From Candidatus Latescibacterota bacterium (lineage in GTDB: Bacteria > Latescibacterota > UBA2968 > GCA-2709665): DNA of 64,000 nucleotides. Where the stretch lies: the NCBI GenBank assembly GCA_965222075.1, contig OZ244937.1:288001-352000 (forward strand), read 5' to 3'. The translations under genes were made by a program, and so were the position numbers. The notes beneath the pieces are model-generated. The model did no database searches. It had not been told where the DNA came from and saw only the letters and a list, made by a program, of their open reading frames with translations. Shown in pieces: positions 24,482-57,150 of the stretch; position 1 is the stretch's first letter; every line of letters begins with the position of its first letter.

Positions 24482-24697
24482 ATGAGTGCTCATCGCGTTG
24501 AAACGGTTATACGCCAGGGCAGAACGGTTGTGCTAAAGGATTTGCCTTTCCAGGTAGGCGAGTCGGTCGAAGTCATTATTTCTCATTGCTCGTCAGAACG
24601 CAACGAGAAAGACCGCTATCCATTGCGTGGCACTCCGATAAAATACGTCAATCCTGCTGAACCTGTAGCGCATGGGGATTGGAGCGTATCACAATGA
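24482..24697 (+). CDS. Putative VapB-type antitoxin
   Basis: GGAGG RBS; LPFQVGESVEVII..YPLRG; ATGA overlap with the PIN gene. Confidence 0.7.
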   Translation: MSAHRVETVIRQGRTVVLKDLPFQVGESVEVIISHCSSERNEKDRYPLRGTPIKYVNPAEPVAHGDWSVSQ

Positions 24698-25088: not shown

Positions 25089-25270
25089 ACACGCCAAACC
25101 CGTTGTTAAAATAAGGCGATGGCGTGATTGGGCTTGGCGATTTTGTGATCTTTGCCAAGGCCTTCGGGAAAGAAGGTTGACCTATCTGCGCCTGCCAGAA
25201 GACAGGCAGGCGCAAGCAGAGCAGCGAACGGTACCCCGTTCCGTATGTTCGTTTACTGAGGTGTAAACCC

Positions 25271-26866: not shown

Positions 26867-26973
26867 AGGGAAAAGTGTGAAGGATGAAAGGGGAAGAAAG
26901 AAGCAACCACAGCATGGGCAGGGCGTAAACCAACGCCACAACGTTAATACAACTCAGATTGAGGTAGGCAGGC

Positions 26974-27174
26974 ATGCTCGAAAAACCTCGTTCCCCCAAA
27001 TGGGTATATGATGACTCGGGTGAGGTCATTGAGGTAATACTTGGATATGACGATTTCAAGACGTTACTTCAAAAGATCGCTCGGGAAACGGATTGGGAGA
27101 CGCTTCCTCTCCACTTGCAGGATGCCGTTGACGCGATGTTAATGGAAGAATCGCCTGAATATACTGTGGAATGA
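26974..27174 (+). CDS. Small hypothetical protein (3' half repeated at 15122-15211)
   Basis: GAGG RBS; LLQKIARETDWETLPLHLQDAVDAMLMEES found at both sites. Confidence 0.5.
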   Translation: MLEKPRSPKWVYDDSGEVIEVILGYDDFKTLLQKIARETDWETLPLHLQDAVDAMLMEESPEYTVE

Positions 27175-27225
27175 TCGCGTTTCTATAATCCCCGGGACGG
27201 ATTACGAGGTCAGGAGCAGGGGCCA

Positions 27226-29652: not shown

Positions 29653-29769
29653 CCTATCTGCGCCTGCCTGTGTTCCTCCCACACGCAGGCCGGGTCTTCG
29701 GCAGGCAGGCGCAAACAGAGCAGCGAACGGTACCCCGTTCCGTATGTTCGTCTACTGAGGTGTAAACCG

Positions 29770-30041
29770 ATGCGTTTCTTCAACACGGCCGGTCCCATCA
29801 AGCCGGATATTCACTACGATGTCCCGCCGTTGGAACGGATTGACCTGGACGAGGTGCCGATGCTGATCGAGCAGCAGAGGTACTTTGTCATGCACGCGCC
29901 CCGGCAGACGGGCAAGACGTCCTCTCTGCTGGCCTTGATGGACGAGCTGAACGGCGGCGGGCGGTATCGCTGCATGTACGTGAACGTGGAGATCGGCCAG
30001 TCCGCACGCGGGATACGAAAGCTACGGTGTGGGGGATGTGA
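29770..30041 (+). pseudogene. Internally deleted copy of the 25271-26866 ATPase
   Basis: First ~240 nt joined directly to the last ~30 nt (GGATACGAAAG..GGGATGTGA). Confidence 0.9.
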
Positions 30042-30279
30042 AGGGAAATGACTCCGCAGTGATGATAGGAGAGTAGATCCATGAAACCCCCCGTTCTTTG
30101 TATTGCAGATCGAAAATTTATCGTATTGAACGTGATGTGTGACTTTAAATAGGAGAAAGGAGGTCTTAAGGCTACCTTGTAAGTATCACCAAAACGAGGC
30201 AGCCAACCCCCAACAGGAGGGACCTCCAAATGTATAATTTAGAACTATTCGTCATCGCTGTCTACTGTTTAATTGCCGA

Positions 30280-30312
30280 CCTGCCTGCCGCGCGGTGCTT
30301 GGCGCAGGCAGG
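30280..30312. mobile_element. 33-nt CCTGCCTG hairpin insertion
   Basis: Removal restores IADELYP. Confidence 0.88.
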
Positions 30313-30804
30313 TGAGTTGTATCCCAACTTCTGTCAAAGATATGGCCCCCCCCGTCGGGCAGGCTTTTCACCAACCCTGAGTGATGCGGAATGCCTGACG
30401 ATTGAAATCGTTGGACAATTTCTGGGCTATCCCAATCAAAAGCAACTCTTTGAGCGGATGCGTGAGCGCTTCGGCACCTGGTTTCCAGATCTAAAAGAGA
30501 GGGAGGCCTTTGTGCGCCAATCGGCCAATCTTTGGCAGGTCAAAGCCATTTTACACCAGCAGTTGGTGGAAAGGTTAGGTGGCCATCACGCCCCCTGTCA
30601 GATCATTGATACCCTGCCCGTTCCCATCTGTCACCTGGCACGGAGGTGGAGGCGAAAAATCTTCAAAACAGACCCCGTCTTTGATTTTCCAGACCCCACC
30701 AAGGGCTACTGTGCGGCCAAAAAGGAAGCATACTTTGGCTTCAAAGGGGGACTGCGGATCACAAAGGATGGCCTGATTGTTCACGCGCCGCTGTTGCAAG
30801 CCTA

Positions 30805-30837
30805 CCTGCCTGCAGCGCAGGGCACTGCGCAGGCAGG
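30805..30837. mobile_element. 33-nt CCTGCCTG hairpin insertion
   Basis: Removal restores LQAYGHD. Confidence 0.88.
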
Positions 30838-30894
30838 TGGTCATGACTCAAAGTGCCGCGACCAACTTCTGGAGGGAGTGCAACCCGATACCTT

Positions 30895-30921
30895 CTTGCC
30901 TGCGCGCAGCGCGCAAGCAGG
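30895..30921. mobile_element. 27-nt hairpin insertion (CTTGCCTG..CAAGCAGG)
   Basis: Removal restores DTFVLGD. Confidence 0.85.
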
Positions 30922-31095
30922 TGTGTTGGGCGATACCGCTTTTTTGGATCTAAACTGGCAGGAAGCGTGTCAAAAACGCCATCAGGTGCGGGTTTTAACC
31001 CCCATCAAATCCAATATGAAGCCAACCCCACAGCGCAAACCCTTTATACTATCTGGGGTGGGAAAAACCCTGCGACGGTTGATTGAAACCGTCTA

Positions 31096-31122
31096 CCTGC
31101 CTGTGCGTTGCACGCAGACAGG
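31096..31122. mobile_element. 27-nt hairpin insertion (CCTGCCTG..CAGACAGG)
   Basis: Removal restores IETVYAQL. Confidence 0.88.
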
Positions 31123-31223
31123 TGCACAACTGACCCAACGCTTTCAGGTGGCCAGAATGAGGGTGCGCGATGCCTGGCACTTCAGAACCTCTGGACCACC
31201 AAAATCTTAGCGCATACAGTCTG

Positions 31224-31275
31224 CCTGCTTGCCTGTCTGCCTTCGGCACAGGCAGGCGCGCTGCGCGCAGGCAAG
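31224..31275. mobile_element. Nested hairpin pair (27 nt + 25 nt)
   Basis: Removal restores HTVCVFLN; outer unit is the exact reverse complement of 30895-30921. Confidence 0.85.
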
Positions 31276-31420
31276 CGTGTTCCTCAATATCCAGCTGCAA
31301 CGAGATCCCTTAGATTTTGAGGGACTCGTCCGATTCTAAAAAAAGTCTCACATGACGTTTGCTTCTACTACAACACAATTGCCCATCAATCGTAACTGAT
31401 TGTGGGCTTGTTCGTTTTAT

Positions 31421-31456
31421 TGTTGCAAACTACAACACGCGTTGTAAATTGCAACA
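31421..31456. promoter_or_regulatory. Tandem dyad, candidate activator binding site
   Basis: TGTTGCAAACTACAACA followed by GTTGTAAATTGCAAC; whole stretch near-palindromic. Confidence 0.5.
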
Positions 31457-31647
31457 TTTTTCGTTCCCGCCTTACAACTTTTCCTATAACTACATTTATA
31501 AACAGGAAGTTATAAAATTCCTTCCGCATGGACTTGTTCTCCGGAGGGGTTTTTGCGTTGCATTTTGCGACAATTTCCAAAATTCCCGCTGCTCCCATAT
31601 TCTGCCTAACTCGTTCAATGGAAATGAGTTAGGCAGATTTTTGAGAT

Positions 31648-31664
31648 TTGGCACACATTTTGCA
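31648..31664 (+). promoter_or_regulatory. Sigma-54 (-24/-12) promoter
   Basis: TTGGCAC-ACATT-TTGCA matches TGGCAC-N5-TTGC. Confidence 0.7.
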
Positions 31665-31696
31665 TGTACAGTTGAAAAGATCGTGCCATCCATATC

Positions 31697-31807
31697 CCTG
31701 TCTGCCTGCTTGCCTGTCTGCCTGCTTGCGCGCTGCGCGCAGGCAAGCGTGCAACGCACAGGCAGGCGCGCTACGCGCAGGCAAGCGTGCGGTGACGCAC
31801 AGGCAGG
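31697..31807. mobile_element. Four-deep nested hairpin stack (30+27+27+27 = 111 nt)
   Basis: Four left arms followed by four stem + right-arm units; removal restores AIIDMDGT. Confidence 0.92.
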
Positions 31808-31973
31808 GATGATGGCCTGTTGGAAAAAGGTCTCATCCCGGGTCTTCCAGACTTTCACCCGAGCCTGATTGATGGCTTCCTGAAGATCGAGGATATCATC
31901 CTGCTTGAAACGATGCAGCAAATCGCCTGCGGTAGAGGGAGCAGGCAACCGTTCAACCTCAAGCGCATCCCTG

Positions 31974-32006
31974 CCTGCCTGCAGCGCGGTACGCCGCGCA
32001 GGCAGG
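31974..32006. mobile_element. 33-nt CCTGCCTG hairpin insertion
   Basis: CCTGCCTG-cagcg-cggta-cgccg-CG-CAGGCAGG. Confidence 0.85.
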
Positions 32007-32059
32007 CGACATGACTGTTCAATTCCGGGTCATTTCTCTCTTTGCGCTTCTGCCTCTCC

Positions 32060-32239
32060 AATTGTATCCGTCCGTTCCCGGGTCGCATCGCTCGGCCTGT
32101 TCTTTGGCTTCTCTTCATCTGCTTGTCAGGACACCTGGGTGAATCGGAAGCCTCAGCGGACGGATTCAGCGCCTTTGTTCGGAAGCCCTTTGACATTCAG
32201 CGTTTGGAGACAGTTGCCCGGATCATCAGAACAGCCTGA
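32060..32239 (+). pseudogene. Receiver-domain C-terminal remnant
   Basis: FICLSGH..GFSAFVRKPFDI parallels the receiver domain downstream. Confidence 0.55.
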
Positions 32240-32251
32240 AAAGCGCACAGG

Positions 32252-32311
32252 CCTGCCTGCCCGCCTGCGCGCTGCGCGCGGGCAGGCGCCGGACTACGGC
32301 CGGCAGGCAGG
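32252..32311. mobile_element. Nested hairpin pair (33 nt + 27 nt)
   Basis: CCTGCCTG[CCCGCCTG-CG-cgc-tgc-gcg-CGGGCAGG]CG..CAGGCAGG. Confidence 0.85.
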
Positions 32312-32686
32312 GAGGTTGCCTGTATTCTCCTGGTCGAAGATGCCCCCCTGGTGGCATGGCTGGTTCCCCATGCCCTGGCGAGGGAAGGCTACATCCTCAT
32401 TATCGTAGCGGACGGCAGGCAGGCGCTTTGGGTGCTGGAGCGGGAACTGCCCGATCTGATTTTGAGTGATCTCCGGCTGCCCCGCATGGACGGATGGGCG
32501 CTTTTCCAGGAAGTGCGGGAGCGCTACCCGCAGGTTCCCTTCATTGCAATGTCGGGACACTCGGACAGCGAGGAGGCCACCGGGAAGGGGTTCAATGCCT
32601 TTATTCAAAAGCCTTTTGACATCCAATACCTAATTATAACCGTTCGCCGGATCATCTATGAGGCAAAACAGAAAGAGCAGGACTAA
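32312..32686 (+). CDS. Response-regulator receiver domain (start unclear, possibly pseudogene)
   Basis: ILLVED..PDLILSDLRLPRMDG..AMSG..QKPF. Confidence 0.75.
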   Translation, partial: EVACILLVEDAPLVAWLVPHALAREGYILIIVADGRQALWVLERELPDLILSDLRLPRMDGWALFQEVRERYPQVPFIAMSGHSDSEEATGKGFNAFIQKPFDIQYLIITVRRIIYEAKQKEQD

Positions 32687-32776
32687 AACCTGCGACCGTC
32701 CTGGCCGATAGAACCTCATAAACCGCTATCTGTTGCTCACGATATTGATCATCACTTCTAACACGGGAGGTCCATC

Positions 32777-35104
32777 ATGTCTTCAACATCTTCGCTGTTC
32801 AGAAAAGTTCTAATGATGCGGAAGGTTCCTTCTCTTGTCCATTTAAAGTCACACATTACGTTCGTATTGATTGTAGCCATTGGCGCGATGGCCCTGCTGG
32901 CCACCGTCGAAACGGCACAGGCAGTTCCAGGTCAACCTGACAGACCGACACTTTTTGTTGATTACGATGAGGATGTTGTTGACAACTACATAGGCGCCTA
33001 CGCTGAGTTGACCGCTACGACCAACTCTGTCTCGGGTGCTGCGCGATACGAGTGGGATCTCCTGCGCGGGACGGTTTCAACAACGAGACCATCGGTAACC
33101 AGGGGCGTTTTCGTATCTGACAGCATTGCCACGGCGTCGGTCAAAGTGCGTGCGGTCGATAGCGAAGGCAACGCAGGTCAGTGGAGCAGCACAGCGTCAA
33201 CCAATATTTATTTCGCTCCACGTCCACCTATGCCGACCTTGAGCTTCGACGAAGAAGATAAGACCATTACCATATCGGTTTACGGGTACAGAGGAGCAAC
33301 GGAATACACAATCAAAATCACCGCCCCGGGCGGTAGTAAAACCAGAAAGACAGTCACCGATACGGTGTACGCCTACTCCGTGCCTTTGTCTGATCCATCA
33401 GGGACCTGGAAGGTCAGCGTGCAGGCCACGACAGCTACTCACCGTACCGCCTTCTCACGCACCGCATTATTGGCTGTGAAGGTTCCGGAACAGCCCGTCG
33501 AACTTTCGGCTGAAGCCGGCAACGGCCAGGTGACGCTTACCTGGAAGGATCCGGGCGATTCTGGTATCGCCAAATACCAACTGCAAGTGGACCACGGCGA
33601 GTGGACCGATATTGAGGGCAGCGACGCCGGCACGACCAGCCACACGGTTACGGGGCTCACCAACGGTACCAGGTATCTCTTTCAAATCCGTGCGGTGAGC
33701 AACAGCGGCGCGGGCGAGGCGTCCGACAGGGTGTTGGCGACGCCGGTGGCGTTACCGAAACCGACCGGGCTTGCCGCAACGTCCGACGACGGCCAGGTGA
33801 CGCTTACCTGGAAGGATCCGGGCGATTCTGGTATCACCAAATACCAACTGCGAGTGGACTACGGCGAGTGGACCGATATTGAGGGCAGCGACGCCGGCAC
33901 GACCAGCCACACGGTTACGGGGCTCACCAACGGTACCAGGTATCTCTTTCAAATCCGTGCGGTGAGCAACAGCGGCGCGGGCGAGGCGTCCGACAGGGTG
34001 TTGGCGACGCCGGTGGCGTTACCGAAACCGACCGGGCTTGCCGCAACGTCCGACGACGGCCAGGTGACGCTTACCTGGAAGGATCCGGGCGATTCTGGTA
34101 TCACCAAATACCAACTGCGAGTGGACTACGGCGAGTGGACCGATATTGAGGGCAGCGACGCCGGCACGACCAGCCACACGGTTACGGGGCTCACCAACGG
34201 TACCAGGTATCTCTTTCAAATCCGTGCGGTGAGCAACAGCGGCGTAGGCGAGGAATCGGACACCGTGTTGGCGTACCCGGAACCGGTTCCGGAGTTGGCG
34301 GCATCCGTACCGTCTTCGCTGACGGAGGCGACGCTGCATGGAAGCGTGGTGACGCTGAGATTGACAGGACGATCCTACTTGAACGCGGTCAGAAATAACG
34401 TGACGGTATCGGGCATTGAAGGTGTAACGTTCAGGTCGTCAACCGATGTGGATCGCGTGAGCGATACGGAGGTTACGGTGAAGCTGACGTTCAACGGCAA
34501 TATTGATTCCGATACGATGCTGGTGTTCACGGTGGGGGCAAGTGCGATAGCGGGCTATACGGGTCCCGCGCTCACGGCGGAGATTCCGGTCACTGCGGTG
34601 GCCGAATCGGTGGTCGCATCGGCTCCACAACCGTTGACAGAGGCGACGCTGCATGGGAGCGTGGTGACGCTGACGCTGAGCGGCGGCGCTTACGAGCGTT
34701 GGAACACGGTGAGAAACAACGTGACGGTATCGGGCATTGAAGGTGTAACGTTCAGGTCGTCAACCGATGTGGATCGCGTGAGCGATACGGAGGTTACGGT
34801 GAAGCTGACGTTCAACGGCAATATTGATTCCGATACGATGCTGGTGTTCACGGTGGGGGCAAGTGCGATAGCGGGCTACACCGGTCCGGCGTTCACAGCG
34901 GAGATTCCGGTCAGTGCTGACGAGGAAGCGGCGCCCGACTTTGATGGCGATGGGAGGGTTGATTTTTTCGACTTTATTCGCTTTACAGCCGTATTCGGGT
35001 CGAGTCAGGGCGATGCGAGGTACGACGCGCGGTATGATCTGGATGGGGATGGGACCATCGGGTTTGGGGATTTTCTGATCTTTGCCAACAGCTTTGGCAA
35101 ATAG
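32777..35104 (+). CDS. Secreted fibronectin type III repeat protein with dockerin/EF-hand-like tag
   Basis: VTLTW..YQL..TVTGLTNGTRYLFQIRA three times; C-terminal PDFDGDG..DLDGDG. Confidence 0.88.
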   Translation: MSSTSSLFRKVLMMRKVPSLVHLKSHITFVLIVAIGAMALLATVETAQAVPGQPDRPTLFVDYDEDVVDNYIGAYAELTATTNSVSGAARYEWDLLRGTVSTTRPSVTRGVFVSDSIATASVKVRAVDSEGNAGQWSSTASTNIYFAPRPPMPTLSFDEEDKTITISVYGYRGATEYTIKITAPGGSKTRKTVTDTVYAYSVPLSDPSGTWKVSVQATTATHRTAFSRTALLAVKVPEQPVELSAEAGNGQVTLTWKDPGDSGIAKYQLQVDHGEWTDIEGSDAGTTSHTVTGLTNGTRYLFQIRAVSNSGAGEASDRVLATPVALPKPTGLAATSDDGQVTLTWKDPGDSGITKYQLRVDYGEWTDIEGSDAGTTSHTVTGLTNGTRYLFQIRAVSNSGAGEASDRVLATPVALPKPTGLAATSDDGQVTLTWKDPGDSGITKYQLRVDYGEWTDIEGSDAGTTSHTVTGLTNGTRYLFQIRAVSNSGVGEESDTVLAYPEPVPELAASVPSSLTEATLHGSVVTLRLTGRSYLNAVRNNVTVSGIEGVTFRSSTDVDRVSDTEVTVKLTFNGNIDSDTMLVFTVGASAIAGYTGPALTAEIPVTAVAESVVASAPQPLTEATLHGSVVTLTLSGGAYERWNTVRNNVTVSGIEGVTFRSSTDVDRVSDTEVTVKLTFNGNIDSDTMLVFTVGASAIAGYTGPAFTAEIPVSADEEAAPDFDGDGRVDFFDFIRFTAVFGSSQGDARYDARYDLDGDGTIGFGDFLIFANSFGK
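33524..34260 (+). repeat. Three near-identical 267-bp FN3 units
   Basis: GGCCAGGTGACGCTTACCTGG at 33524, 33791 and 34058. Confidence 0.92.
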
Positions 35105-35394
35105 GTCCCTTCCTCTGGCAGTGACAGAGGAGGAGGTGGCGGTGGTGGCAGTAGTCAAACGTGCACTGTGAGGTTGGCGCTGAATCCGGGAGACGGATGC
35201 AGTGGCTCCGGTTACAGTCTTCGCAACGACGCAGGTGTATTGGTGGCGGACGGTACTATAGGTGGCATTACCATGAGCAATACGCGCTTCAGCGGCGGCA
35301 GTGTGCAATTGAACAGACTGCACCTGACCAGAAGCGGCAATGTCTGGACGATTGTCAGCCTGCCCTAACCGGATGTGCTTGCCAAATGGCGGCG

Positions 35395-36100
35395 TTACGG
35401 CTCGCCGTCACGCGTCACCGTCACCTTGTAGGTCCCCGTCGTCACCCCATCCTCCGCCGTCACCCGGATCTCTATCCTGTTCCTGCCGACCTGCAGGCCG
35501 TCGAACGTCACCGACTTCCGCGATGTGCCATCCATCGTGAGGCTCATACCGGTATTCCGAACCACCAGAGGGGTACCGTCCGCGGCCGTGCCGCTCTGAT
35601 TGTGCGTCATACTGGATGGATTGGAAATGGTTATCGTGACGGTTGTAGCAGTCGCTGCGACAGTTGCCTCGTACGAACTCGTGTTCCGGTCAAAAGCTGG
35701 CCGCAGTATGGAGTTTTTCGACGACACCCCGAAGAAGCCGGCCTTGCCCTCCGCCAGCGCCAGACCCGTAAGTTTCGTATCCCGGCTCGGCGCAATTCGG
35801 GTCACCGTGATGGTGTAACGCTCCGTTGCCTTTCCATCCTCGGCAGTAGCCACGAGATCCAGGGTATTCCGACCCACGGTCAGGCCGGAGACGTTCATCT
35901 TGTCGACCACGAGGGAGGACCCGCCTGCCGCAGTTCCCCTCAACCGGACGATCGTCGCCGCTTCCTTCCTCCTGACGGTGAACTTGAGACCCGTCACCCC
36001 GTAAGGGACGGCTGCCTGGTAGGTCTTTGTTTCCGGCTCAAACGTGGGTGTGAGGTTGCTCTTCGAGAGCGCCAGCGCAGTCAGCGCGGCATCGCTTCCA
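35395..36100 (-). CDS. Two cadherin-like beta-sandwich domains (probable 3' fragment)
   Basis: ALTALAL..LTPTF..Y..VGRN..TAEDG..YTITVTR twice; no convincing 5' end. Confidence 0.7.
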
Positions 36101-36448
36101 GGCGTGGTTGAGTCTCCGTGTGCGTCTCGTGCGGGGCCAATGCACGAGGCCGTTCCTGTTCCGTATCGGAATGACATAGCCAGGCTCCTTTCGGGATGCG
36201 AAAGCGCTCGCGATTTGCACACACCGAGGCCTGGGGTGGGGCAACCGGGTGGGTGCGGATGTTGTGTATGCATCATACGGTCTCTGGTGAAATTAAGCTG
36301 GAATAATTCGTCACAATTTTGTTTAATATAACATGCTTGAGATCACAAAAACAAAATATATTTCTCATTTAAAATCTGTATATTTACAATCTCCGGGTAG
36401 TCAACCGGCCTCAGCCAGAAATGTTGACATAAAAGGATGGAGAGAAAA

Positions 36449-38184
36449 ATGGTTGCAGACAGCGGGCGGGTGCAGCGAGAGCGACATTTGACTTCGGGCA
36501 ACGGCGCATTGCTGGTGGTCACTGACAGCGGGGGACCGTACTGGGAGCGGATGATTGTGGATGAGACGGTTCTGGTGGCGCTGGCGCATTTCGGCATGCC
36601 CTATCGGGTGCTGGATCTGGCAGGGGAACGACCGACACCGGAAGTCCTGAACCGGTGCGCAGGGATTGTTCTGGCGCAGAACGGTCTGGTGCGTGTTTGA
36701 GCGATGCGGAGACCGGTCTGATCGCCGATGCGGTTCGGAACGGCGCCGGACTGGTCAATTTCGATTACGATGTGAGGGCTTACAAGGCGCCCCTGCTGGA
36801 GATTTTTGGGTTCGAGCGGATCAACCCGCATCCCTATGCGACCAACACGGTGCGGGTTCGGGAGTGTGACCATTATATTACAGAGCTGCAATCGGCGGGA
36901 GAATTCCACGCGTTCGACCGTATGGTGACGGCGATTAGCGTGGAGAAATGGGGCGAGGAGGTGACACCGCTGGCGGACGGGATTCTGGGGAAGGAGCAGC
37001 TGGTCCATATCCGGCACCTGGCGCCGTGGAGCGCGTTTGAACCGCGCAATTTTCCCCTGGTGTTCGCCACGGAATGGGGAGAGGGGCGGGCGGTGCAGTT
37101 TACGCTGAATTCCCGGGTGTGGCGGAACGCGTTTTTCGGCCATGCAAGGGGGATGGACGATCTGTTCTGGCGGTCGATCCTGTGGACGGTGCGCAAGCCG
37201 TTTGCGGCGAACATGATTCCGCCGTTTGTGGCCATGTCGTGGGACGATTGCGAGGGGAGGCACGATTTCGCCTATGCCGATATCGCCGTTGCGCATGGGT
37301 ATGTTCCAATGCCCTCGCTGTTTGTGAAGCAGGTGCCGGAGCGGTTGTTTCCCAAAATCAGAGCGGGCCTGAAAAGCGGCAAGATCCAGTACAATACGCA
37401 TGCGCTGGATTATTACCGTTTGCTGGTCTACAATTTCGGCAAGGGGGAGTGCTCTGAGGGTGAACTGGAAGAGAATTTCGCTTTTCAGGACGCTTTCTGG
37501 AGGCAGGTGGGGGCTTATCCGGGAGCGACGCTGCGATTCCATTGGGGGGAGTACGGGGTGAGGGCGCTGCCCTTTTTGAAGGCGCGGGGCCACCGGTTTT
37601 TCTGCCCGGCCCTGCAGACCGGGCTGCATAAGGCCGATATGTGTATGCTGGACGGGTTCTGGCCGTACGGGTTGCAGACCTGTTATTACGATTATCTGCC
37701 GGATGATCACGACTTTTTCGCGTTCGCGGCCATGCTGGCCCGGCACCAGGAGGATTTTTTGACGGGGTGTACCCCCTATTTGCGGGAGAGCGAGAGGACC
37801 GATGTTGAGAAGGCGGCGGGGAATGCCGCCCTGCAGGTCCGGCACGGCCACCGCGCCGGGTTTTATGCGGAGATTGTGACGCACGAGCAGAAGTTCGACG
37901 CCCTTTCGATGGAGGAGTGGGATCGAATTTTGACCCGGGCCGATCAAATGACCGGGGGGTTTGAAAAGATCCACGCGAGCCACGACGAGATCGGGCACTA
38001 CCTGCAGGGGAAAGACGGCGTCCGGATCGCAGAGGCCACGGTAGACGGGGACAGCGTGCGCTGCAGGCTGGCAGGCAGAACCGCTGCGCCGCTGCGCCTG
38101 TCCGTATTCCGGGATGAAGGGGAGTCGGTGGCGCGTGAGTACAGGGTGATCGATGTGTTTGAGGGAGAGGCGGAGGTGGGGTGA
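36449..38184 (+). pseudogene. GATase-like/deacetylase-like protein with -1 frameshift at ~36688
   Basis: QNGL|GACLSDAE joins ORFs 36437-36700 and 36655-38184 if one G is added. Confidence 0.6.
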
Positions 38185-39149
38185 GGGCCAGGAAGGGTAC
38201 AGGTGAGGATAGGCTCGTGGAGAAGATTCTGTTTAATATTCAGGTTGATTGTGAATCCACACAGCGGAGCATCAACGATCCTGCGCTGGGCGAGCGGTCG
38301 ATTCGGGGGCTGGGGGAGATCTTTTCGGAGACCGGGGTGGTGGGGACGTTTGTGGTGATTCCTTCGGATATCCGTGTCCACGCGGATATTTACAGGGCGC
38401 TGGAGGCTGAGGGGCACGAGGTGGGTCTGCATATCCATCCGGCGGAACAGGGATATGGTGAGTTCTTCGGGGTGTACGGGCTTGAGGAGCAGGTGAAGAT
38501 TCTGCAGGAGGGTGTGGATGTGTTTGCCGGGTGTATGGGAAAGGCGCCCGAGGCGTTCACGCCGGGCTACTTTTCGGCCAATGACCATACCTATCCGGCG
38601 CTGGAGGCGCTGGGGTTCAGGCACGGTACGGTGTCGATGCCGACCCGGAACCTGCCGCAGTGCGCCTGCGTGTGGGGCAATTCTCCGCTGGATATCCACT
38701 ATCCGCATCGGTATAACCGCAGCCTGGTGGGAGATGTCGATTTTGTGGATGTGCCGCCCACGGTGGATGTGGCGTCCCGGATGTGGGGTGGGGCGCACCC
38801 GCAGGATCTGCGCATTGAGCTGGTGGACGCCAAGAATCACTGGTACACGATTCAAAAGAATGTGGTGCGGCAGGTGGAGGCGGGGGAGGAGGTTCCGGTG
38901 AAGTATCTGAAGGCGCTGACCCACAATATTTTCGATTACAGCAGGCCGCAGGATTTCCGGAGGGAGACGATGCTGGGGGTGATTTCGGCTGTACGGGAGA
39001 TTTGCGGGCAGCAGGGCTGTGAACTCGCGCCGGCGACGGTGGCGGAGATCGCCGCAGAGTACCGCCGCAGAGTTCCCCTGCCCGAAGGCGGCGTCAAACT
39101 GGACCTGGATACCCGGGGGCGTGCGGCCTGGACGTCGAAGGAATCCTGA
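38181..39149 (+). CDS. Polysaccharide deacetylase family protein
   Basis: VDCE, GTFVV, GHEVGLHIH and AFTPG motifs. Confidence 0.8.
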   Translation: MRARKGTGEDRLVEKILFNIQVDCESTQRSINDPALGERSIRGLGEIFSETGVVGTFVVIPSDIRVHADIYRALEAEGHEVGLHIHPAEQGYGEFFGVYGLEEQVKILQEGVDVFAGCMGKAPEAFTPGYFSANDHTYPALEALGFRHGTVSMPTRNLPQCACVWGNSPLDIHYPHRYNRSLVGDVDFVDVPPTVDVASRMWGGAHPQDLRIELVDAKNHWYTIQKNVVRQVEAGEEVPVKYLKALTHNIFDYSRPQDFRRETMLGVISAVREICGQQGCELAPATVAEIAAEYRRRVPLPEGGVKLDLDTRGRAAWTSKES

Positions 39150-39165
39150 CAGAGGAGGTGGTACG

Positions 39166-39903
39166 GTGGTGACGATCGATGGGTATTGTACGCTGGGTGA
39201 GGACCGGGAGTACGACCTGACGGAGACCGATCTGCTGCAGGCAATGGACGGGGCGGGGGTTGACCGGGCGGTGATTGCAGCGGTCGATCGCTGTTTGGCG
39301 GTGCACAACCGGGAGGGGAACGATTTTCTGCTGAAGGCGGCTGCGGCGCATGCAGACCGGTTGATTCCCTCCTGTTCGGCGAACCCGTGGTACGGGGATG
39401 CGGCGGTGGCGGAGTCGAAGCGGGCGATTGAAGGTGGGGCCCGACTGCTGGTGCTGCATCCGTTCGTTCAGGGGTACCAGGCGAACGACGAACTGGTCTG
39501 GCCGCTGCTTGAGGCGGCGGGGGAGGAGAAAGTTCCGGTTTACGTTCATACGGGGACGCCCGGGAATGCAACGCCGTGGCAGGTGGTGGATCTGGCCGAT
39601 CGGTATCCATCGGTGGACTTTATTATCGGGCACTGCGGGGCCACGGATTTCTGGAACGATATGGTGGAGGCCGGAAAGGCGTCCGATCGGGTCTATCTGG
39701 AGTCGTCACTGGCCAGGCCGTTTGTTTTTACCCGATATCTGGAGGAGGTGGGGGGGCACAAGGGGATTATGGGATCGTTTGCTCCGATTAATGCGTTGAC
39801 TTTTGAGTGGGAGCAGATGTACAGCGTTCTGCCGGAGGTGATGTGGCCGGATGTCTGCGGCGGCAACCTGCTCCGTTTGCTGGAAAAGCGAGGGACTTTA
39901 TGA
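39166..39903 (+). CDS. Amidohydrolase_2 family protein (degenerate metal motif)
   Basis: GAGGAGG RBS; IDGYC replaces DxHxH; LHP, VHTG and GHCG present. Confidence 0.75.
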   Translation: MVTIDGYCTLGEDREYDLTETDLLQAMDGAGVDRAVIAAVDRCLAVHNREGNDFLLKAAAAHADRLIPSCSANPWYGDAAVAESKRAIEGGARLLVLHPFVQGYQANDELVWPLLEAAGEEKVPVYVHTGTPGNATPWQVVDLADRYPSVDFIIGHCGATDFWNDMVEAGKASDRVYLESSLARPFVFTRYLEEVGGHKGIMGSFAPINALTFEWEQMYSVLPEVMWPDVCGGNLLRLLEKRGTL

Positions 39904-40646
39904 TTGTCGATTGCCATACGCACTGGGGGATGGTCTGGGAAGACCGGGACCGGGGCGATCCTGCCCGCTGGCTTGAGGTGCTGGACAGACACGGCGTGGA
40001 CAGGGCATTCCTGCTGGGGCACTACAATCTGCATCGTTGCGATAAGGCCCGGGAGGATAACGATCGGCTGGCAAATATTACGGCCCGGGGTCCGGACCGT
40101 TTTATCCCTTTTGGTACGGTCTGGCCGCAGATGGGCAGGGATGCGGTTGAGGAGGTCCGACGCTGTATTGAGGATCTGGGCCTGAAGGGCTTAAAGTTTC
40201 ACCCCTGGTTGCAGGGGTTCAGCACGGGCGATCCGGTGTTCGGCGAGATCTGCGGATTGGCCGGTGAGCTTGGCGTGCCGGTTTTTTTCCACGACGGTAC
40301 CCCGTGTTACAGCGTTTCGGAACAGATCGGGGGCCTGGCGCGCCGGTTTCCCGGCACCCGGCTGGTGCTGGGGCATTCGGGGTTGTTGTGGAATTGGCGC
40401 AGCGCGCTGGAGGCGGTGAGGCACCCCAATGTGTGGGCCTGTTTGTGCGGACCCCACATGCGGGCGGTTGAGGTTTTCTGCCAGCGGGCGGATCCGGACC
40501 GGCTTTTGTGGGGGACGGATTTCGGGTTCGGTTTTTCGGATCCGATAGACTACCGGCTGAATCTGGTCCTGCAGGCGAAGATTGACGATTCGCTGCGGGA
40601 AAGGATTCTGGGGGTCAACCCGCTGCGGCTGCTGGAAGAAGCGTGA
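39900..40646 (+). CDS. Amidohydrolase_2 family protein
   Basis: DCHTH, GLKFHP, FHDG, GHSG and WGTD motifs. Confidence 0.85.
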   Translation: MIVDCHTHWGMVWEDRDRGDPARWLEVLDRHGVDRAFLLGHYNLHRCDKAREDNDRLANITARGPDRFIPFGTVWPQMGRDAVEEVRRCIEDLGLKGLKFHPWLQGFSTGDPVFGEICGLAGELGVPVFFHDGTPCYSVSEQIGGLARRFPGTRLVLGHSGLLWNWRSALEAVRHPNVWACLCGPHMRAVEVFCQRADPDRLLWGTDFGFGFSDPIDYRLNLVLQAKIDDSLRERILGVNPLRLLEEA

Positions 40647-40804
40647 GAAGGGGCGAACCCGCCTATGAGAGGCGAGGGGCGCGTAGCCTCGACCTGCTTA
40701 AATTCGCCTCAAATTGGTCTTGACTTTGGGGTCCACTTCATTCAAATTGGCCACTGGCAGATTGACGCACAAAAGCGGATCGATCTTTTAAAGCCGGGAA
40801 CCAG

Positions 40805-43054
40805 ATGACGAACAAAAAGTTATATGCAACCAAATGCGAGATAGTTCAAAGCCTATTTGTTTGGAGTATGTCTTTTTTTTGTTTCGGTTTTGCCTTGTTT
40901 AGCACGCTTCCTTCTTTTGCAAAACAGAGGCCCCGAGTCGCACTTGTGCTCAGTGGGGGAGGCGCACGTGGGGGGGCACATATCGGCGTGTTGCGCGTGC
41001 TTGAGCGCGAAGGTGTACCCATTGATTTGATTGTGGGCGTGAGTTATGGTGCTCTGGTGGGAGGACTGTACGCTGCCGGATACTCTGTTGATAATGTCGA
41101 ACGCATTATTGTAGAAACAGACTGGTGGGAAATAACCAACAATAGCCCCGACCGCCGTCTGTCGAATTTGAATCGCAAACCAATGGCTGATCGTCAGATG
41201 CTTGCATTGCGCCTCGATAAATTGGAACTAAAATTGCCTTATGGGATTTTTGCCGGGCAAAAGATCCAGCATTTTCTCAATCAACTGACCCTTGGCGCAG
41301 CTTATCGGGCGCGAAACGATTTTGATCGGCTTCCAACGCCTTTTCGCGCAATTGCAACAGATATTTTATCTGGAGAACAGGTCGTGCTTAAAAATGGCTC
41401 GCTCGGCGCGGCAATCAGAGCGAGTATTTCTGTTCCCGGGGTGTTTGCGCCGGTAAGTACAGAACAAACCCATCTCGTAGATGGCGGCATTGTCAATAAT
41501 CTGCCTGTAGATATCGCATTAGACGCTGGAGCTGATTTTGTTATTGCCGTGGATTGTGCCACGCCTTTGCGTAATCAAAAGCACGAAATTGAAGATATCA
41601 TCGACGTCATCGATCAAGCTGTCAGTTTTCGAATTGAAGAAAAAAAAATGGCAAATCGAAAACGCGCTCATGTGCTGATAATGCCCAATTTGAAAAGATT
41701 TGATCCAGACGATTTTAATCGGTCATATACCTTGATTCCAATTGGAGAAAAAGAAACCGAAAAACATTTGGATGCGATCTGGAAGGCTCTGCAAACACTC
41801 GGAATTTCAAAGCGTGTTGGAAAGTCAAGACCGTCGATATTGCCAGATGAGTTTGGTTTCAAAACCTGGGCGGATATACCATCGGATATTGTAATTGATC
41901 GGGTTCGGATTGAGGGTTTAGAGCGCTATTCACAAGAGGCATTTACATCGCATTTGGAAAAGTTCATCAATAAGCCTATATCGTTTCGGAAACTGGAACG
42001 CGAATCTGGCCGGTTGTATGCAACCGGATTATTTCAAACGGTGGATTACCAGGTTATCTACCAGGAAAGCCACGCCGACTTGGTTTTTCGGGTGCTTGAA
42101 AACCCCCCCAGTGAGGTGAAAGTGGGACTTCGTTACGACAACGATTTTCGGGTTTCGGCACTGTGCGAGTTTGCACATCAAGATACTTATGGCCGCGTAG
42201 CAGAGTTTTATTTGCGCGGCCTATTGGGCAATTTGAATTTTGCTGAAATGAATTTAATTTTTCGCTCATCTAAGGTCCTGGGTTTTCTCGGGGAGATTCA
42301 AGGTTGGAGTCAAGATCGGTTGTATTTTCAAAATGGGCAACGCCAGGACGCGTATAACGAGAGGCGTCTTCGCACGCGATTGGGCATACAGGCTTTGTTC
42401 CACAGTTGGGGAGGTTTCAAAGTTGGGTATCAAGTTGAGCATGTCCGCATTCGCAATGCGGACCGTTCAATAGGCAATGCGTCTAAATATCTACCCGGCT
42501 TCTGGTTATCCGCAGGTATTGACACGCGAGACGATGCGTTTTTGCCAAAGCGGGGCATCTATTTTCAAACCCGGGGAAAATGGGTTTATCGGGCATTATC
42601 ACAAAAGCAGGTGCAAACACAGGTCGCGTACTTCGCCAGTCCCCATCCGAGATTGAGCGTGGGCCTTTGGTCGCACGGAGGCTATGTGACACAGTCTGCA
42701 CCGATTTATGAACGCTTCACATTAGGTGGTGCAGGACACTTTAGTAGCGCAGCATTGCGCGTTGTCGGTCTCAAACGAGATGAACTGAGGGTTTCCAGGT
42801 TCGTATCGGCGGGCATTTCTATTTGGATCCACCTGAAATTTTGGGAATCCATACCGCGCAGTGCTGTTGGAATTTTCTATCAGGGCGGTCTGTACAATTT
42901 GACTCCCAATCCGCATCGACCCAATACCCATATCCATGGTTTTGGTATTGGGGGTTATATCAACACAACGATTTTAGGCCCCATTCGTGTTGAGATTGTG
43001 AGCACAGAAAAAAAAGATATCCAGATTTATACCGCAATCGGATTTGCGTTTTGA
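40805..43054 (+). CDS. Patatin phospholipase + POTRA + beta-barrel (PlpD-like)
   Basis: LSGGGARG, GVSYG and DGG motifs; POTRA LYATGLF; C-terminal IGFAF. Confidence 0.85.
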   Translation: MTNKKLYATKCEIVQSLFVWSMSFFCFGFALFSTLPSFAKQRPRVALVLSGGGARGGAHIGVLRVLEREGVPIDLIVGVSYGALVGGLYAAGYSVDNVERIIVETDWWEITNNSPDRRLSNLNRKPMADRQMLALRLDKLELKLPYGIFAGQKIQHFLNQLTLGAAYRARNDFDRLPTPFRAIATDILSGEQVVLKNGSLGAAIRASISVPGVFAPVSTEQTHLVDGGIVNNLPVDIALDAGADFVIAVDCATPLRNQKHEIEDIIDVIDQAVSFRIEEKKMANRKRAHVLIMPNLKRFDPDDFNRSYTLIPIGEKETEKHLDAIWKALQTLGISKRVGKSRPSILPDEFGFKTWADIPSDIVIDRVRIEGLERYSQEAFTSHLEKFINKPISFRKLERESGRLYATGLFQTVDYQVIYQESHADLVFRVLENPPSEVKVGLRYDNDFRVSALCEFAHQDTYGRVAEFYLRGLLGNLNFAEMNLIFRSSKVLGFLGEIQGWSQDRLYFQNGQRQDAYNERRLRTRLGIQALFHSWGGFKVGYQVEHVRIRNADRSIGNASKYLPGFWLSAGIDTRDDAFLPKRGIYFQTRGKWVYRALSQKQVQTQVAYFASPHPRLSVGLWSHGGYVTQSAPIYERFTLGGAGHFSSAALRVVGLKRDELRVSRFVSAGISIWIHLKFWESIPRSAVGIFYQGGLYNLTPNPHRPNTHIHGFGIGGYINTTILGPIRVEIVSTEKKDIQIYTAIGFAF

Positions 43055-54265: not shown

Positions 54266-54290
54266 CTATAACAACCCGTTTTTGTACAGG

Positions 54291-55502
54291 ATGTTGCAGA
54301 TGCTATTCTCCGGTATTCAAGGGAAGCCGGAAGATGCCCCGCCGGCCAAGACGCTTCCGGGGATATCGAATGTCCTCTCGGGTCGGTTCAGCGTCGGCGA
54401 ACTCCAAACGATTGATACCAGCGCGCTTCTGGGACGAGAGGAGGTTGTTCTAAATCTGGATGCGGTCGCCGACTACCTGAAAGAGAAGAAGGTTCTGGTT
54501 ACGGGGGCGGGGGGGTCTATCGGGTCGGAGCTTTGCCGGCAGATTGTGACGTACAATCCAGCGCTTTTGATTATGCTGGGAAGGGGTGAGAACAGCATTT
54601 ATGAGATCGAGAACGAACTTGGGGGTGAATGCGGGCAGGTGACCCTTGAAACCGTGATTGCGGATACCATAGATTGGGACAAGGTGGACCGGGTTTTTGC
54701 AGATTACCGTCCCGATGTGGTGTTCCACGCAGCAGCGCATAAACATGTGACCCTGATGGAACGGCATCCGGACGAGGCCGTGAAGAACAATGTGTTTGGC
54801 ACGCTGAATGTGGGGCGGGCCGCTCGAGACCAGGGCGCATCTGTTTTTGTACTGATTTCCACGGATAAGGCCGTGAACCCCGAGAATGTGATGGGGGCGA
54901 CCAAGAAGGTGGCCGAGATGATCGTTCAAGACCTTGCCAGAGCGGGAAAGACGAAGTTTTTGGTTGTGAGGTTCGGGAATGTGATCCGGAGCCGGGGGAG
55001 TGTGATTCCGCTGTTTGAAAAACAGATCCGGAACGGCGGGCCGGTTACGATCACCCATCCGGAAGTAACGCGGTATTTTATGAGTATATCCGAAGCCGCG
55101 CATCTGGTCCTCCAAAGCGGCGCCGTGGCCGATAGGGGGAGTATCTGTGTGCTGGATATGGGGGAACCTGTCAGAATTTTGGACCTGGCCCGAAATCTGA
55201 TCCGCATGGCAGGCCTGCGGCCCGATGAAGATGTTCGAATTGAGTTTACAGGACTCAGGCCGGGCGATAAACTGGTTGAGGAACTCCTGACGAGCAGAAA
55301 AAATATGAAGGCAACCAGGTTCGAGAAAATTTTTTTAGATGAACCCGATCAGGTGGGGGGCAAAAAGTTACACGATGGTTTGAAAAAGCTCGAAGCGTGT
55401 GTTAAAAGGTTCGACCGTTCCGGCACGATTTCTCTGTTGCAGGAGATTGTCCCCACCTACAGGGTGCAGCATTCCGATTCGGTTTCTGAAAAGAGAGGGT
55501 AA
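54291..55502 (+). CDS. CapD-like nucleotide-sugar 4,6-dehydratase (no N-terminal TM region)
   Basis: VTGAGGSIGSEL, HAAAHKHV, ISTDKAV, RFGNV and GLRPGDKL motifs. Confidence 0.88.
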   Translation: MLQMLFSGIQGKPEDAPPAKTLPGISNVLSGRFSVGELQTIDTSALLGREEVVLNLDAVADYLKEKKVLVTGAGGSIGSELCRQIVTYNPALLIMLGRGENSIYEIENELGGECGQVTLETVIADTIDWDKVDRVFADYRPDVVFHAAAHKHVTLMERHPDEAVKNNVFGTLNVGRAARDQGASVFVLISTDKAVNPENVMGATKKVAEMIVQDLARAGKTKFLVVRFGNVIRSRGSVIPLFEKQIRNGGPVTITHPEVTRYFMSISEAAHLVLQSGAVADRGSICVLDMGEPVRILDLARNLIRMAGLRPDEDVRIEFTGLRPGDKLVEELLTSRKNMKATRFEKIFLDEPDQVGGKKLHDGLKKLEACVKRFDRSGTISLLQEIVPTYRVQHSDSVSEKRG

Positions 55503-55593: not shown

Positions 55594-55656
55594 CCTGCCT
55601 GCGCCGGATGCCCTGCCTGCGCCGAGTTCTGCTCGGCAGGCAGGTCGGCAGGCAGG
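55594..55656. mobile_element. Nested hairpin pair (30 nt + 33 nt), intergenic
   Basis: CCTGCCTG-CG-ccgg-atgc[CCTGCCTG-CG-ccgag-ttctg-ctcgg-CAGGCAGG]tcgg-CAGGCAGG. Confidence 0.9.
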
Positions 55657-55680
55657 TTCACTGTTTGACGGGTCAGACAA

Positions 55681-57150
55681 GTGAGCAGAAGATTCGAACC
55701 GATTGACCTCTCGCGTGTCCGAACCTTTCCCCTTTCGGAACGCCCCGGCAAGGTCTCTCTGGCCGGCTTCGCCACCCCGCCACAGGCGGGCGTCTCGTTC
55801 GGTGGTTTCTTAAGGGGGCTGCCGGAGATCCTGATCGGCGCGGAGTTCCGGAGCTTTGTCCGGGACCTTTCAGCGGCGGTTCGGGCGGAGAAGACCGTGG
55901 TCGCCGGGGTCGGCGGTCACGTGATTAAGTGCGGTCTTGCCCCTCTTCTTATCGATCTGATGCGCCGCGGGTGGGTCTCCGCCCTTTGTATGAACGGCGC
56001 AACGGCTATCCATGATGTTGAAATCGCGATGTGCGGCAGTACCTCCGACCTGCCTGCAGCGCAGGACGCTGCGCAGGCAGGGGACGTCTCCGCAGGGTTA
56101 GGGGATGGCTCCTTTGGCATGGCCAGGGAGACCGGCACGTTTATAAACGGCGCGATCCGGGACGCACCGGAGGGCTATGGGGCCACGCTGGGCCGCAAGA
56201 TCGTGGAGGCGGACCTCCCCTACAGGGAGCAGAGCGTGCTGGCCACAGCGTCTGAACTGGGGCTTACGGCAACGGTTCACGTGGCCGTTGGCGCCGATAT
56301 CGTCCACCAGCATCCCTCGGCCGACGGTGGAGACATCGGGCGGGCGTCATTCGAAGATTTCCGCATCTTCTGCGCCGTCGTCGCCAGCCTCCAGGGGGGG
56401 GCTTACATCAACATCGGATCGGCTGTACTCCTCCCGGAGGTCTTTCTCAAGGCCCTCACGGTGGCCCGCAACCTGGGGCATGGCGTTGCGAATTTTGTCA
56501 CCGCCAATTTCGATATGATTCAGCACTACCGCCCCCGGGTCAACGTGGTGGAGCGGCCCACCCTGGGCGGGGGCCGGGGCTATACCTTCACCGGCCACCA
56601 CGAACTCCTCATTCCCCTCCTGGCACAGTCCCTGCACGAGGCGCTCGAAGATCGGGCCGCGGCTGCCGAACGCAAAGTCGTCTCTTTGGACGAGGCCCTG
56701 GCCATTCGGGACCGCATGCGCGACATCGGCGCTACCGTCATTTTTACCAACGGCTGTTTCGATCTGCTTCACCAGGGCCACGTCACCTACCTGCAGAAGG
56801 CCCGTTCGCTGGGCGATGTGCTGATCCTGGGACTCAACAGCGACGATTCCGTCGGCCGCATCAAGGGCGCCGGCCGGCCTATCCTCCCCCTGGAAGACCG
56901 CGCCAGGGTGCTCGCCGGGCTTGAAGCGGTCGATTACATCTGCGTCTTCGCAGAGGATACGCCGCGTAATCTCATCCAGGCCCTCCTGCCTGACGTTCTT
57001 GTGAAGGGAGGGGACTATAAGGTGGATGAAGTCGTCGGACGAGAGGAGGTTGAGGCCGCCGGAGGCCGGGTGACCACGGTTCCGTTCGTCAAAGGCTGTT
57101 CCACGACGGATATTGTACAGCGGGTGCTCAAGACAGGGAGAGAGAGGTGA
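55681..57150 (+). CDS. Fusion: DHS-like-fold domain + heptose-1-P adenylyltransferase (RfaE domain II)
   Basis: GGHVIKCGL..GSAVLLPEVFLKA..GHHE; C-terminal FTNGCFDLLHQGH, GLNSD and VKGGDY. Confidence 0.8.
   Translation: MSRRFEPIDLSRVRTFPLSERPGKVSLAGFATPPQAGVSFGGFLRGLPEILIGAEFRSFVRDLSAAVRAEKTVVAGVGGHVIKCGLAPLLIDLMRRGWVSALCMNGATAIHDVEIAMCGSTSDLPAAQDAAQAGDVSAGLGDGSFGMARETGTFINGAIRDAPEGYGATLGRKIVEADLPYREQSVLATASELGLTATVHVAVGADIVHQHPSADGGDIGRASFEDFRIFCAVVASLQGGAYINIGSAVLLPEVFLKALTVARNLGHGVANFVTANFDMIQHYRPRVNVVERPTLGGGRGYTFTGHHELLIPLLAQSLHEALEDRAAAAERKVVSLDEALAIRDRMRDIGATVIFTNGCFDLLHQGHVTYLQKARSLGDVLILGLNSDDSVGRIKGAGRPILPLEDRARVLAGLEAVDYICVFAEDTPRNLIQALLPDVLVKGGDYKVDEVVGREEVEAAGGRVTTVPFVKGCSTTDIVQRVLKTGRER
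56049..56081. mobile_element. 33-nt CCTGCCTG hairpin insertion, in frame in a core gene
   Basis: CCTGCCTG-cagcg-cagga-cgctg-CG-CAGGCAGG; removal restores GSTSEDVSAGL. Confidence 0.9.

Follow-up and report, generated by a model that had tools for sequence, protein, structure and literature searches.

A hairpin repeat of codon-multiple length inserts exactly into genes and intergenic DNA of a Candidatus Latescibacterota bacterium

Introduction

The described repeats closest to the element studied here are REPs (repetitive extragenic palindromes), mobilized by REP-associated tyrosine transposases (RAYTs), and the Rickettsia palindromic elements (RPEs). Intragenic REPs carrying GTAG or CGTC tags have been catalogued, with uvrA among their host genes, and no dedicated transposase is apparent for the CGTC-tagged class (Di Nocera et al. 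2013, PMC3733652). RPEs are described as palindromic selfish DNA that lies in frame in unrelated, often essential genes and is co-translated with them (PMC10969869). Here, we analyze a hairpin repeat of 27–36 nt in a stretch of 64,000 nt from a Candidatus Latescibacterota genome (contig OZ244937.1, positions 288,001 to 352,000; hereafter the window), starting from three copies at window positions 55594–56081.

Other mobile systems also offer points of comparison. Classical REPs are reported to prefer convergent over divergent intergenic gaps. IS200/IS605 elements lack the usual terminal inverted repeats and generate no target duplication; their recognition signals are imperfect hairpins with unpaired bases, their sequence preference is weak and confined to one flank, and IS608-type elements show a replication-strand bias. 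The attC sites of integrons, cited here as an analogy only, combine a conserved basal stem with unpaired bases that confer polarity and a variable terminal stem-loop. Searches against Rfam (E ≤ 1) gave no relevant match in the window region, at 20 loci from other phyla or at four further loci of this genome, and, when the literature was searched in full text for the arm sequences, every hit was an unrelated primer or gene. Literature searches directed at palindromic elements in frame, at REPs inside genes and at repeats of Latescibacterota brought up general work on REPs and RPEs but not this element; the spreadsheets accompanying PMC3733652 might list related families.

Results

The window belongs to a single 5.36-Mb contig of 59.3% GC. 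Elements were called with at most one mismatch per arm, 9–22 nt between the arms, a CG beside one of the arms and no fewer than 3 bp in the inner hairpin. By this definition, 396 arm pairs genome-wide yielded 193 elements of the form CCTGCCTG-CG-inner hairpin-CAGGCAGG, that is, 8-bp arms CCTGCCTG/CAGGCAGG, a 2-nt CG asymmetry and a self-complementary, variable core measuring 9, 12, 15 or 18 nt; a stem continuing without a bulge was present in only 5 of the 201 other arm-pair candidates. Lineages are recognizable by their combinations of arm and core, with CCG.., CAGCG.. or CGGCG.. cores between CCTGCCTG arms and TGC, TGCG, TGCGT or TGCGTG cores between CCTGTCTG arms. In the window, the exact-arm pattern matched nine times versus 0.01 expected from 100 shuffles.

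The region 55594–56081 comprises three copies of this one hairpin repeat: a split 30-mer, a 33-mer nested within it and a further 33-mer in the opposite orientation. The 5′ part of the 30-mer (55594–55611, plus strand) consists of the arm CCTGCCTG, CG, the stem CCGG and the loop ATGC, after which it is broken; its 3′ part (55645–55656, plus strand) continues with TCGG and the arm CAGGCAGG. The complete split element at 55594–55656 hence reads CCTGCCTG-CG-CCGG-ATGC^TCGG-CAGGCAGG, where ^ marks the entry point of the complete 33-mer at 55612–55644 (plus strand; CG-CCGAG-TTCTG-CTCGG). Intact 30-mers with the same CCGG-ATGC-TCGG core occur in four further genome copies. Folded as DNA, the nested 33-mer reaches −13.8 kcal/mol (z = −4.35), and the 63-nt composite forms a hairpin within a hairpin (z = −4.85). 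A gap of 179 nt, which separates a polysaccharide-synthesis gene (54282–55502) from an RfaE-like gene (55681–57150, plus strand), accommodates the nested pair; the RfaE-like gene encodes 489 aa with a C-terminal cytidylyltransferase-like domain (PF01467, E = 2.6e-18). This second gene contains the third copy (56049–56081, CG side on the minus strand) in frame, translated as LPAAQDAAQAG. In an AlphaFold2 model of the host protein the insert falls between two helices in segment 119–146, where the predicted local distance difference test (pLDDT) score is below 50; with a mean pLDDT of 60.9 (nine sequences), the model is too weak to place the insert in a surface loop.

Exact insertion without target duplication was observed at all four sites where filled and empty versions could be compared at the DNA level, covering five elements (30, 33, 36 and 27+33 nt). 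In the RfaE-like gene, exactly 33 nt have been gained at TCCGA^GGAT with zero duplicated bases, and orthologues in nine relatives, including a same-genus genome with 95% protein identity, are without the 11 residues. Two sites lie in UvrA, where comparison with the same-genus genome G001 revealed a gain of 36 nt at TGTA^TCGG and of 60 nt, a 27-mer with a nested 33-mer, at GGCG^TCCC. At the fourth site, in a 153-nt tandem array, a 30-nt copy occupies the loop of the hairpin gagggca tcc tgccctc and the adjacent unit is empty, with a 1-nt ambiguity of the boundary. The exact insertions start with CCTG and finish with CAGG. A case at the protein level is provided by a methylase that has nine extra amino acids from a 27-mer in relative G021 and is without them in relative G003. 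The unit enters exactly, with neither target duplication nor footprint.

The copy in the RfaE-like gene is also absent from a closely similar population. In run X9, a metagenome from another study, a 9444-nt contig joins position 56048 directly to 56082, skipping the 33 nt, and the X9 contigs show one other different letter over ~840 nt of the same gene; runs X3 and X5 carry the element. Since the near-identical X9 allele is empty and the X3 and X5 alleles are filled, the insertion at 56049–56081 is very recent and polymorphic, and this polymorphism between near-identical populations indicates that the element is moving now. Metatranscriptome contigs (run X15) cover parts of gene 55681–57150, none of them spanning 56049–56081. 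We are highly confident that these repeats constitute a mobile element.

Two of the loci with filled and empty sites have peculiarities of their own. The UvrA gene (genome 1821500–1827268) encodes 1922 aa, apparently two fused UvrA-like halves, and harbors two element insertions. The tandem array (genome 1138900–1139450, locus L167) carries, per 153-nt unit, two different elements in the loops of two older hairpins, and in its last unit one hairpin is still empty.

An earlier note on this DNA had proposed that the inner sequence varies under conserved pairing and that an unpaired CG beside one arm gives the element polarity. We examined the inner pairing in sets selected by arms and CG only, so that it was not preselected. 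Paired cells made up 96% of the inner positions in 31 unique 27-mers, 86% in 14 30-mers, 85% in 42 33-mers and 81% in 17 36-mers. Several Watson-Crick types occur per inner position, for example CG 15 and TA 14 at one pair of the 27-mers, or CG 12, AT 11, GC 2 and TA 1 at one pair of the 33-mers. The observed pairing was reached by 0 of 1000 column shuffles, a count that is neither a probability nor a calibrated test because the copies are related by descent; slid registers gave 9–70%. These compensatory changes bear out the first proposal. The second holds for 169 of the 193 copies, in which the asymmetric CG marks one side, and fails for the remaining 24 (CGCGCTGCGCG inner type), whose CG lies inside a continuous palindrome and hence confers no polarity. 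The position of the unpaired bases also varies. Seven single copies folded as single-stranded DNA with z-scores of −2.0 to −4.7, and in three of them the bulge slides by one base or sits on the other side. Two subfamilies have a 3-nt bulge at the 3′ side, and the copy at 30280 folds irregularly. A fold of 6+3 is common among the 33-mers, and one of 4+1 among the 27-mers.

Element length follows 18+3n in 175 of the 193 copies (27 nt, 75 copies; 30 nt, 19; 33 nt, 71; 36 nt, 10; other lengths, 18). Genes were called with a custom, crude caller that scores open reading frames (ORFs) by codon usage (3870 genes, 85% coding). Against these calls, a length of 3n was found inside genes in 81 of 88 copies, between genes in 92 of 101 and at gene edges in two of four; for copies in gaps of up to 500 nt and up to 800 nt, the counts were 25 of 30 and 52 of 59. 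The earlier claim that the length rule extends beyond genes thus agrees with the comparison of genic and intergenic copies. Its description of the core as a stem of n and a loop of n is just one drawing of a core of 3n, and we do not retain it as a rule: the classes can be drawn as (4,1), (4,4) = (5,2), (5,5) = (6,3) and (6,6), and within a lineage they differ by 3 nt in the loop, as in the series CCGA-C-TCGG, CCGA-GTGC-TCGG and CCGAG-TTCTG-CTCGG and in a second lineage with TGCG-A-CGCA followed by TGCG-GACA-CGCA.

Stop codons are also rare. No reading frame of the six contained a stop in 176 of the 193 copies, compared with 1344 of 5000 random windows (27%) and 935 of 2100 shuffled elements (45%). 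Genic copies use all three frames and both orientations, and the frame encoding LPA..QAG predominates, with 45 of the 81 in-frame genic copies versus 21 and 15 for the other two (chi-square p ~9e-5), which makes post-insertion filtering on the encoded peptide visible. Because intergenic copies also have lengths of 3n, triplet length is a property of element lineages rather than the outcome of filtering at each insertion. To this extent the suggestion that it is built into the element stands. A mechanical ruler is not required for this: with 85% of the genome called as coding, multiplication is open only to lineages that are 3n long and free of stops, and selection on lineages is a sufficient explanation of the rule.

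Target preferences were assessed on 156 unique flank pairs oriented with the CG at the 5′ side. Of the 156 pairs, 136 have a purine at −1, 143 a pyrimidine at +1 and 93 a G at +4. Complementarity between −1 and +1 is seen in 94 pairs versus 65 expected, and between −2 and +2 in 27 versus 50 expected. Nesting of one copy in another is frequent and occurs at G^C steps, beside the arm, beside the CG or at the stem-loop junction, and copies also occupy the loops of other palindromic repeats. Decayed transposase genes gather copies as well, up to four per ORF. Between genes, 32 copies lie in divergent gaps and nine in convergent gaps, against a background of 404 divergent and 358 convergent gaps among all gaps longer than 30 nt. 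The copies are mostly single: only 28 neighbor pairs within 300 nt occur among the 193, with mixed orientation and spacing.

We compared related public genomes labeled Candidatus Latescibacterota. Across the 41 relatives counted for the exact pattern, copy numbers ranged from 0 to 117, and sister genomes differed by two orders of magnitude. In a sample of the phylum, 22 of 168 genomes contained any copy, and all eight genomes with at least 10 copies came from one family. A cross-phylum scan with one genome per species, using the 33-nt form with fixed arms and CG, recovered at least 118 loci. Apart from Latescibacterota, the records with listed loci bear the labels Verrucomicrobiota, Lentisphaerae, Kiritimatiellae, Methylomirabilota, Omnitrophota, Acidobacteria, Thermodesulfobacteriota, Planctomycetota, Elusimicrobia, Patescibacteria-group, Thiorhodospira and Pelomicrobium. 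Among the first 80 loci listed, at least 22 lay outside Latescibacterota and had inner stems of 5–6 bp. A few of the cross-phylum loci are chance matches, and a Bacteroidales type has the same arms with a different core. The cultured isolate Thiorhodospira sibirica ATCC 700588 contains 40 copies, mostly identical; for most of the 26 inspected ones, the site is another copy or the loop of one of two other palindromic repeats. A Lentisphaerae metagenome-assembled genome (MAG) has 16 copies. An Acidobacteria MAG and a Thermodesulfobacteriota MAG each carry a copy at the same codon position of a ~900-aa DNA methylase from a defence island, a gene that is a plausible vehicle for copies between phyla. 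Judged by these shared sequences, the element has crossed phylum boundaries.

The remaining copies of the window lie upstream of the locus described above. A 27-nt copy at 9352–9378 reads CG-TCC-CTC-GGA on the minus strand, and the 33-nt copy at 30280–30312 (minus strand, CCAAG..CGCGG type) has a poorly paired inner part (z = −2.03). A decayed transposase-like ORF (30230–31210) includes the 33-nt copy at 30805–30837 (minus strand). Further along lie 27-nt copies at 30895–30921 (CGCGCAGCGCG type; arm variant CTTGCCTG..CAAGCAGG, polarity ambiguous), 31096–31122 (CCTGTCTG-arm family, minus strand), 31721–31747 (arm variant CCTGCTTG..CAGGCAAG, no strand assigned) and 32260–32286 (arm variant CCCGCCTG..CGGGCAGG, no strand assigned), as well as a 33-nt copy at 31974–32006 (minus strand). 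Most of the window copies, together with the decayed ORF and its four insertions, fall in a segment of ~12.5 kb (~23850–36400) that is without a counterpart between the flanking syntenic blocks of G001. In two alignments with G001, one of window 22000–41000 and one of genome 1655000–1674999, the element-rich parts had no counterpart, and no empty sites were gained.

Two further observations concern variants of the family. In the window (30895–30921, 31721–31747 and 32260–32286) and genome-wide, arm variants change in direct rather than mirror order, as in CCTGCTTG..CAGGCAAG and CCCGCCTG..CGGGCAGG, so that each has one C·A mismatch and one T·G pair instead of a compensated pair, for which selection on the hairpin is no explanation. 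A composite repeat of ~100–150 nt with 11 genome copies (1155652, 2396304, 3405274, 4120097, 4342531, 4835807 and five more) consists of an AT-rich hairpin, a 33-mer and a GC-rich tail. In relative G003, the flanks of this composite hold a 33-mer with another core and the CG on the opposite side, which is by far the commonest match among the G003 matches listed.

Discussion

We consider it somewhat probable that the family is a non-autonomous single-strand hairpin transposon that resembles REPs but has no tag, and whose stop-free make-up and 3n length permit life in genes. A length of 3n without stops in six frames would let a genic insertion add only 9–12 residues; the coding share of the genome would thereby be opened to the element, and only 3n lineages would have grown abundant. 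Movement may occur in trans, through an enzyme that acts on folded single-stranded DNA, reads the arms and the CG asymmetry and pastes the hairpin into exposed single strands. The likeliest candidate would be an HUH/Y1 tyrosine transposase of the RAYT or IS200/IS605 kind. Enzymes acting on folded single strands suit the absence of target duplication, the hairpin with its asymmetric unpaired dinucleotide and the taste for exposed loops, and we regard a single-strand hairpin mechanism as modestly favored; the more specific proposal of a RAYT-like or IS200-like enzyme is tentative and falls short of being probable.

A number of observations weigh against this reading. No partner gene bracketed by the element was found among the IS200-like Y1, RAYT-like and DUF559 genes of the genome. 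The one intact IS200-like Y1 gene (genome 2071937–2072296) is adjoined by other hairpins. The RAYT-like gene (genome 3242104–3242868; best NCBIfam match REP-associated tyrosine transposase at 55.6 bits, under the 80-bit cut-off) lies between two ~140-nt direct repeats (3241490–3242970) with GTAG-tagged palindromes of another family, and no CCTGCCTG copy occurs within 6 kb of it. In relatives G009 and G021 the RAYT-like gene is flanked by GAGGGCA-TCC-TGCCCTC palindromes, and three intact and one partial DUF559 genes are bracketed by C-rich/G-rich hairpins of the CCCCTCCCC-GAAA type. Counts of Pfam Y1_Tnp do not track element counts across genomes (32 versus 0 in G004, 75 versus 0 in G038, 0 versus 28 in G019). 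The element bears no terminal GTAG or CGTC tag, its flanks offering only R^Y and a weak ..GG, and there is no replication-strand bias (93:76, p = 0.22; origin and terminus placed by GC skew). Finally, G·T versus A·C counts over the four length classes (25:13, 7:2, 9:16 and 14:1) do not consistently favor one strand. Together with the lack of orientation bias relative to transcription in genes (35 same, 44 opposite; p = 0.37), the last two results leave without support the earlier note's step from covariation to a structure read as single-stranded DNA or RNA.

The relation between RAYT-like genes and copy number is suggestive. A match to the genome's own RAYT-like gene (E ≤ 1e-6) was present in all eight relatives with at least 10 copies versus 8 of the 33 with fewer, and within the family in 8 of 8 high-copy genomes versus 7 of 14 others. 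The genomes are kin, so that the association is confounded by relatedness, and relative G024 has nine copies and no match, two further points on the negative side. RAYT-like ORFs are also present in T. sibirica and the Lentisphaerae MAG; of two small RAYT-like ORFs in relatives, one has a single copy ~90 nt away, and that of T. sibirica has none.

Other parts of the genome were inspected for a mobilizing unit as well. A genome self-comparison for repeats of at least 500 bp revealed no unit ending in the element. A ~1.56-kb repeat with ~8 copies, a putative tnpB-type partner of the IS200-like gene, had no CCTGCCTG arms beside the one copy inspected. A 1.9-kb duplicate next to two copies was rejected as a partner, being a plain 639-aa gene. 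Some side observations arose from the same regions. GTAG-tagged motifs of the kind flanking the RAYT-like gene number only 11 genome-wide. DUF559 nuclease cassettes stand in tandem at genome 3759079–3760404 and 3773600–3774524. A RAYT-like domain lies in frame within DNA-methylase-like ORFs of 1203–1441 aa in several relatives (L175 in G021, L178 in G003, also G002 and G020), and the homologue in this genome is without that insert.

A broader proposal, which we consider rather unlikely, is that of a new bacterial transposable element, the smallest so far: one codon-quantised hairpin with ends identical in many phyla. It would prefer single-stranded loops as entry sites, owe its movement to an enzyme or a universal host activity new to repeat families and have its length of 3n as an evolved adaptation to genes. 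Alternatively, there could be no dedicated transposase at all, the hairpin being spread by host replication and repair alone, for example by template switching at stalled forks or through a hairpin oligonucleotide that, once extruded or excised, is ligated into a lagging-strand nick, with the self-complementary arms setting the boundaries. Such a process would account for the absence of both target duplication and a partner among the Y1, RAYT-like and DUF559 genes and the repeats of at least 500 bp, for the frequent choice of hairpin loops and stem-loop junctions, sites of polymerase stalling, as targets, for flanks that tend to lengthen the stem by one pair (94 versus 65 expected) and for an element that thrives in unrelated phyla. 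We nevertheless find it improbable. The 8-nt arms and CG are identical across phyla and the core varies freely, so that a sequence-specific recognition factor looks likely; other stable hairpins of the genome show no such exact-unit spread into genes; and sister genomes with the same replication machinery range from 0 to more than 100 copies.

The fit to attC-like architecture raises the further idea that a tyrosine recombinase akin to integron integrases or Xer would move the element, recognizing the folded strand by its shape and extrahelical bases. The conserved 8-bp base, the one-sided 2-nt asymmetry and the covarying variable top match such a substrate, as does the absence of target duplication. 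Yet the element has no attC-like core site, is with 27–36 nt far smaller than the known cassettes of such systems and enters diverse targets rather than a single attachment site; no recombinase turned up beside any copy, although no search was aimed at recombinases. We consider the idea very unlikely. Least credible of all is that copies are kept for a cellular function, be it as an RNA hairpin acting in termination or in mRNA stability, as a protein-binding site or as a useful peptide. It could draw on one subfamily that sits in a ~140-nt composite repeat followed by a terminator-like, T-rich run on one strand, on element sequence in metatranscriptome contigs and on the over-represented LPA..QAG frame (45 of 81). 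Against it stand copies in both orientations (35 same, 44 opposite) and all three frames of genes, in decayed transposase genes (four in one ORF) and inside other copies, presence that varies between near-identical strains and sister genomes, and the absence of an Rfam family match.

Whatever moves it, the family offers clean material on how small palindromic repeats move, with exact boundaries, no duplication, live polymorphism and a culturable host. It also illustrates selfish DNA shaped for harmlessness in coding sequence, through lengths of 3n, freedom from stops and a mild peptide in the preferred frame, and it supplies insertions of 9–12 residues to proteins, UvrA and sugar-nucleotide enzymes among them. 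Such repeats also matter for annotation and assembly because they break short-read contigs and add spurious-looking inserts to proteins.

Compared with the REP/REPIN-RAYT system (REPIN, a REP doublet) as set out in PMC3733652, the element shares an imperfect palindrome of 20–40 nt whose copies number tens to hundreds, subfamilies with compensatory stem changes and G·T pairs, a patchy distribution across phyla and, as in intragenic REPs, some copies in frame in genes including uvrA; as for the CGTC class, no dedicated transposase was found among the genes inspected. Unlike REPs, it has neither an unpaired GTAG/CGTC tag nor a tail, nearly half of its copies are genic (88 of 193) and its lengths are quantised to 3n. 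It occurs as single units rather than in the inverted doublets at fixed spacing of REPINs (28 pairs within 300 nt among 193 copies), the RAYT-like gene of its genome is flanked by a different, GTAG-tagged palindrome, and divergent gaps (32) are favored over convergent ones (9), unlike in classical REPs. With no tag, no flanked RAYT and no doublets, it lacks the defining features of the REP/RAYT group.

Other systems differ in different respects. A DDE-type miniature inverted-repeat transposable element would duplicate its target, and duplication is absent at all four DNA-level sites. With IS200/IS605 elements the repeat shares the lack of target duplication, a hairpin with unpaired bases and a weak flank preference; in contrast to them, it consists of one hairpin rather than distinct left and right ends and shows no lagging-strand bias. 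Like RPEs, the repeat inserts in frame into ORFs that are unrelated to one another (of 88 genic copies, 81 have a length of 3n; RfaE-like and UvrA verified against orthologues), and it resembles them in acting as selfish DNA that is translated. RPEs have units of ~100–150 bp and a conserved peptide, within one genus (PMC10969869). The present unit, unlike RPEs, has 27–36 nt, adds 9–12 residues, inserts in either orientation and has identical arms across phyla. Relative to the searches made, what is new in comparison with the literature found is the codon-quantised length series, the six-frame stop-free design, arms and CG that are identical in many phyla, together with direct evidence that insertion is exact and ongoing.

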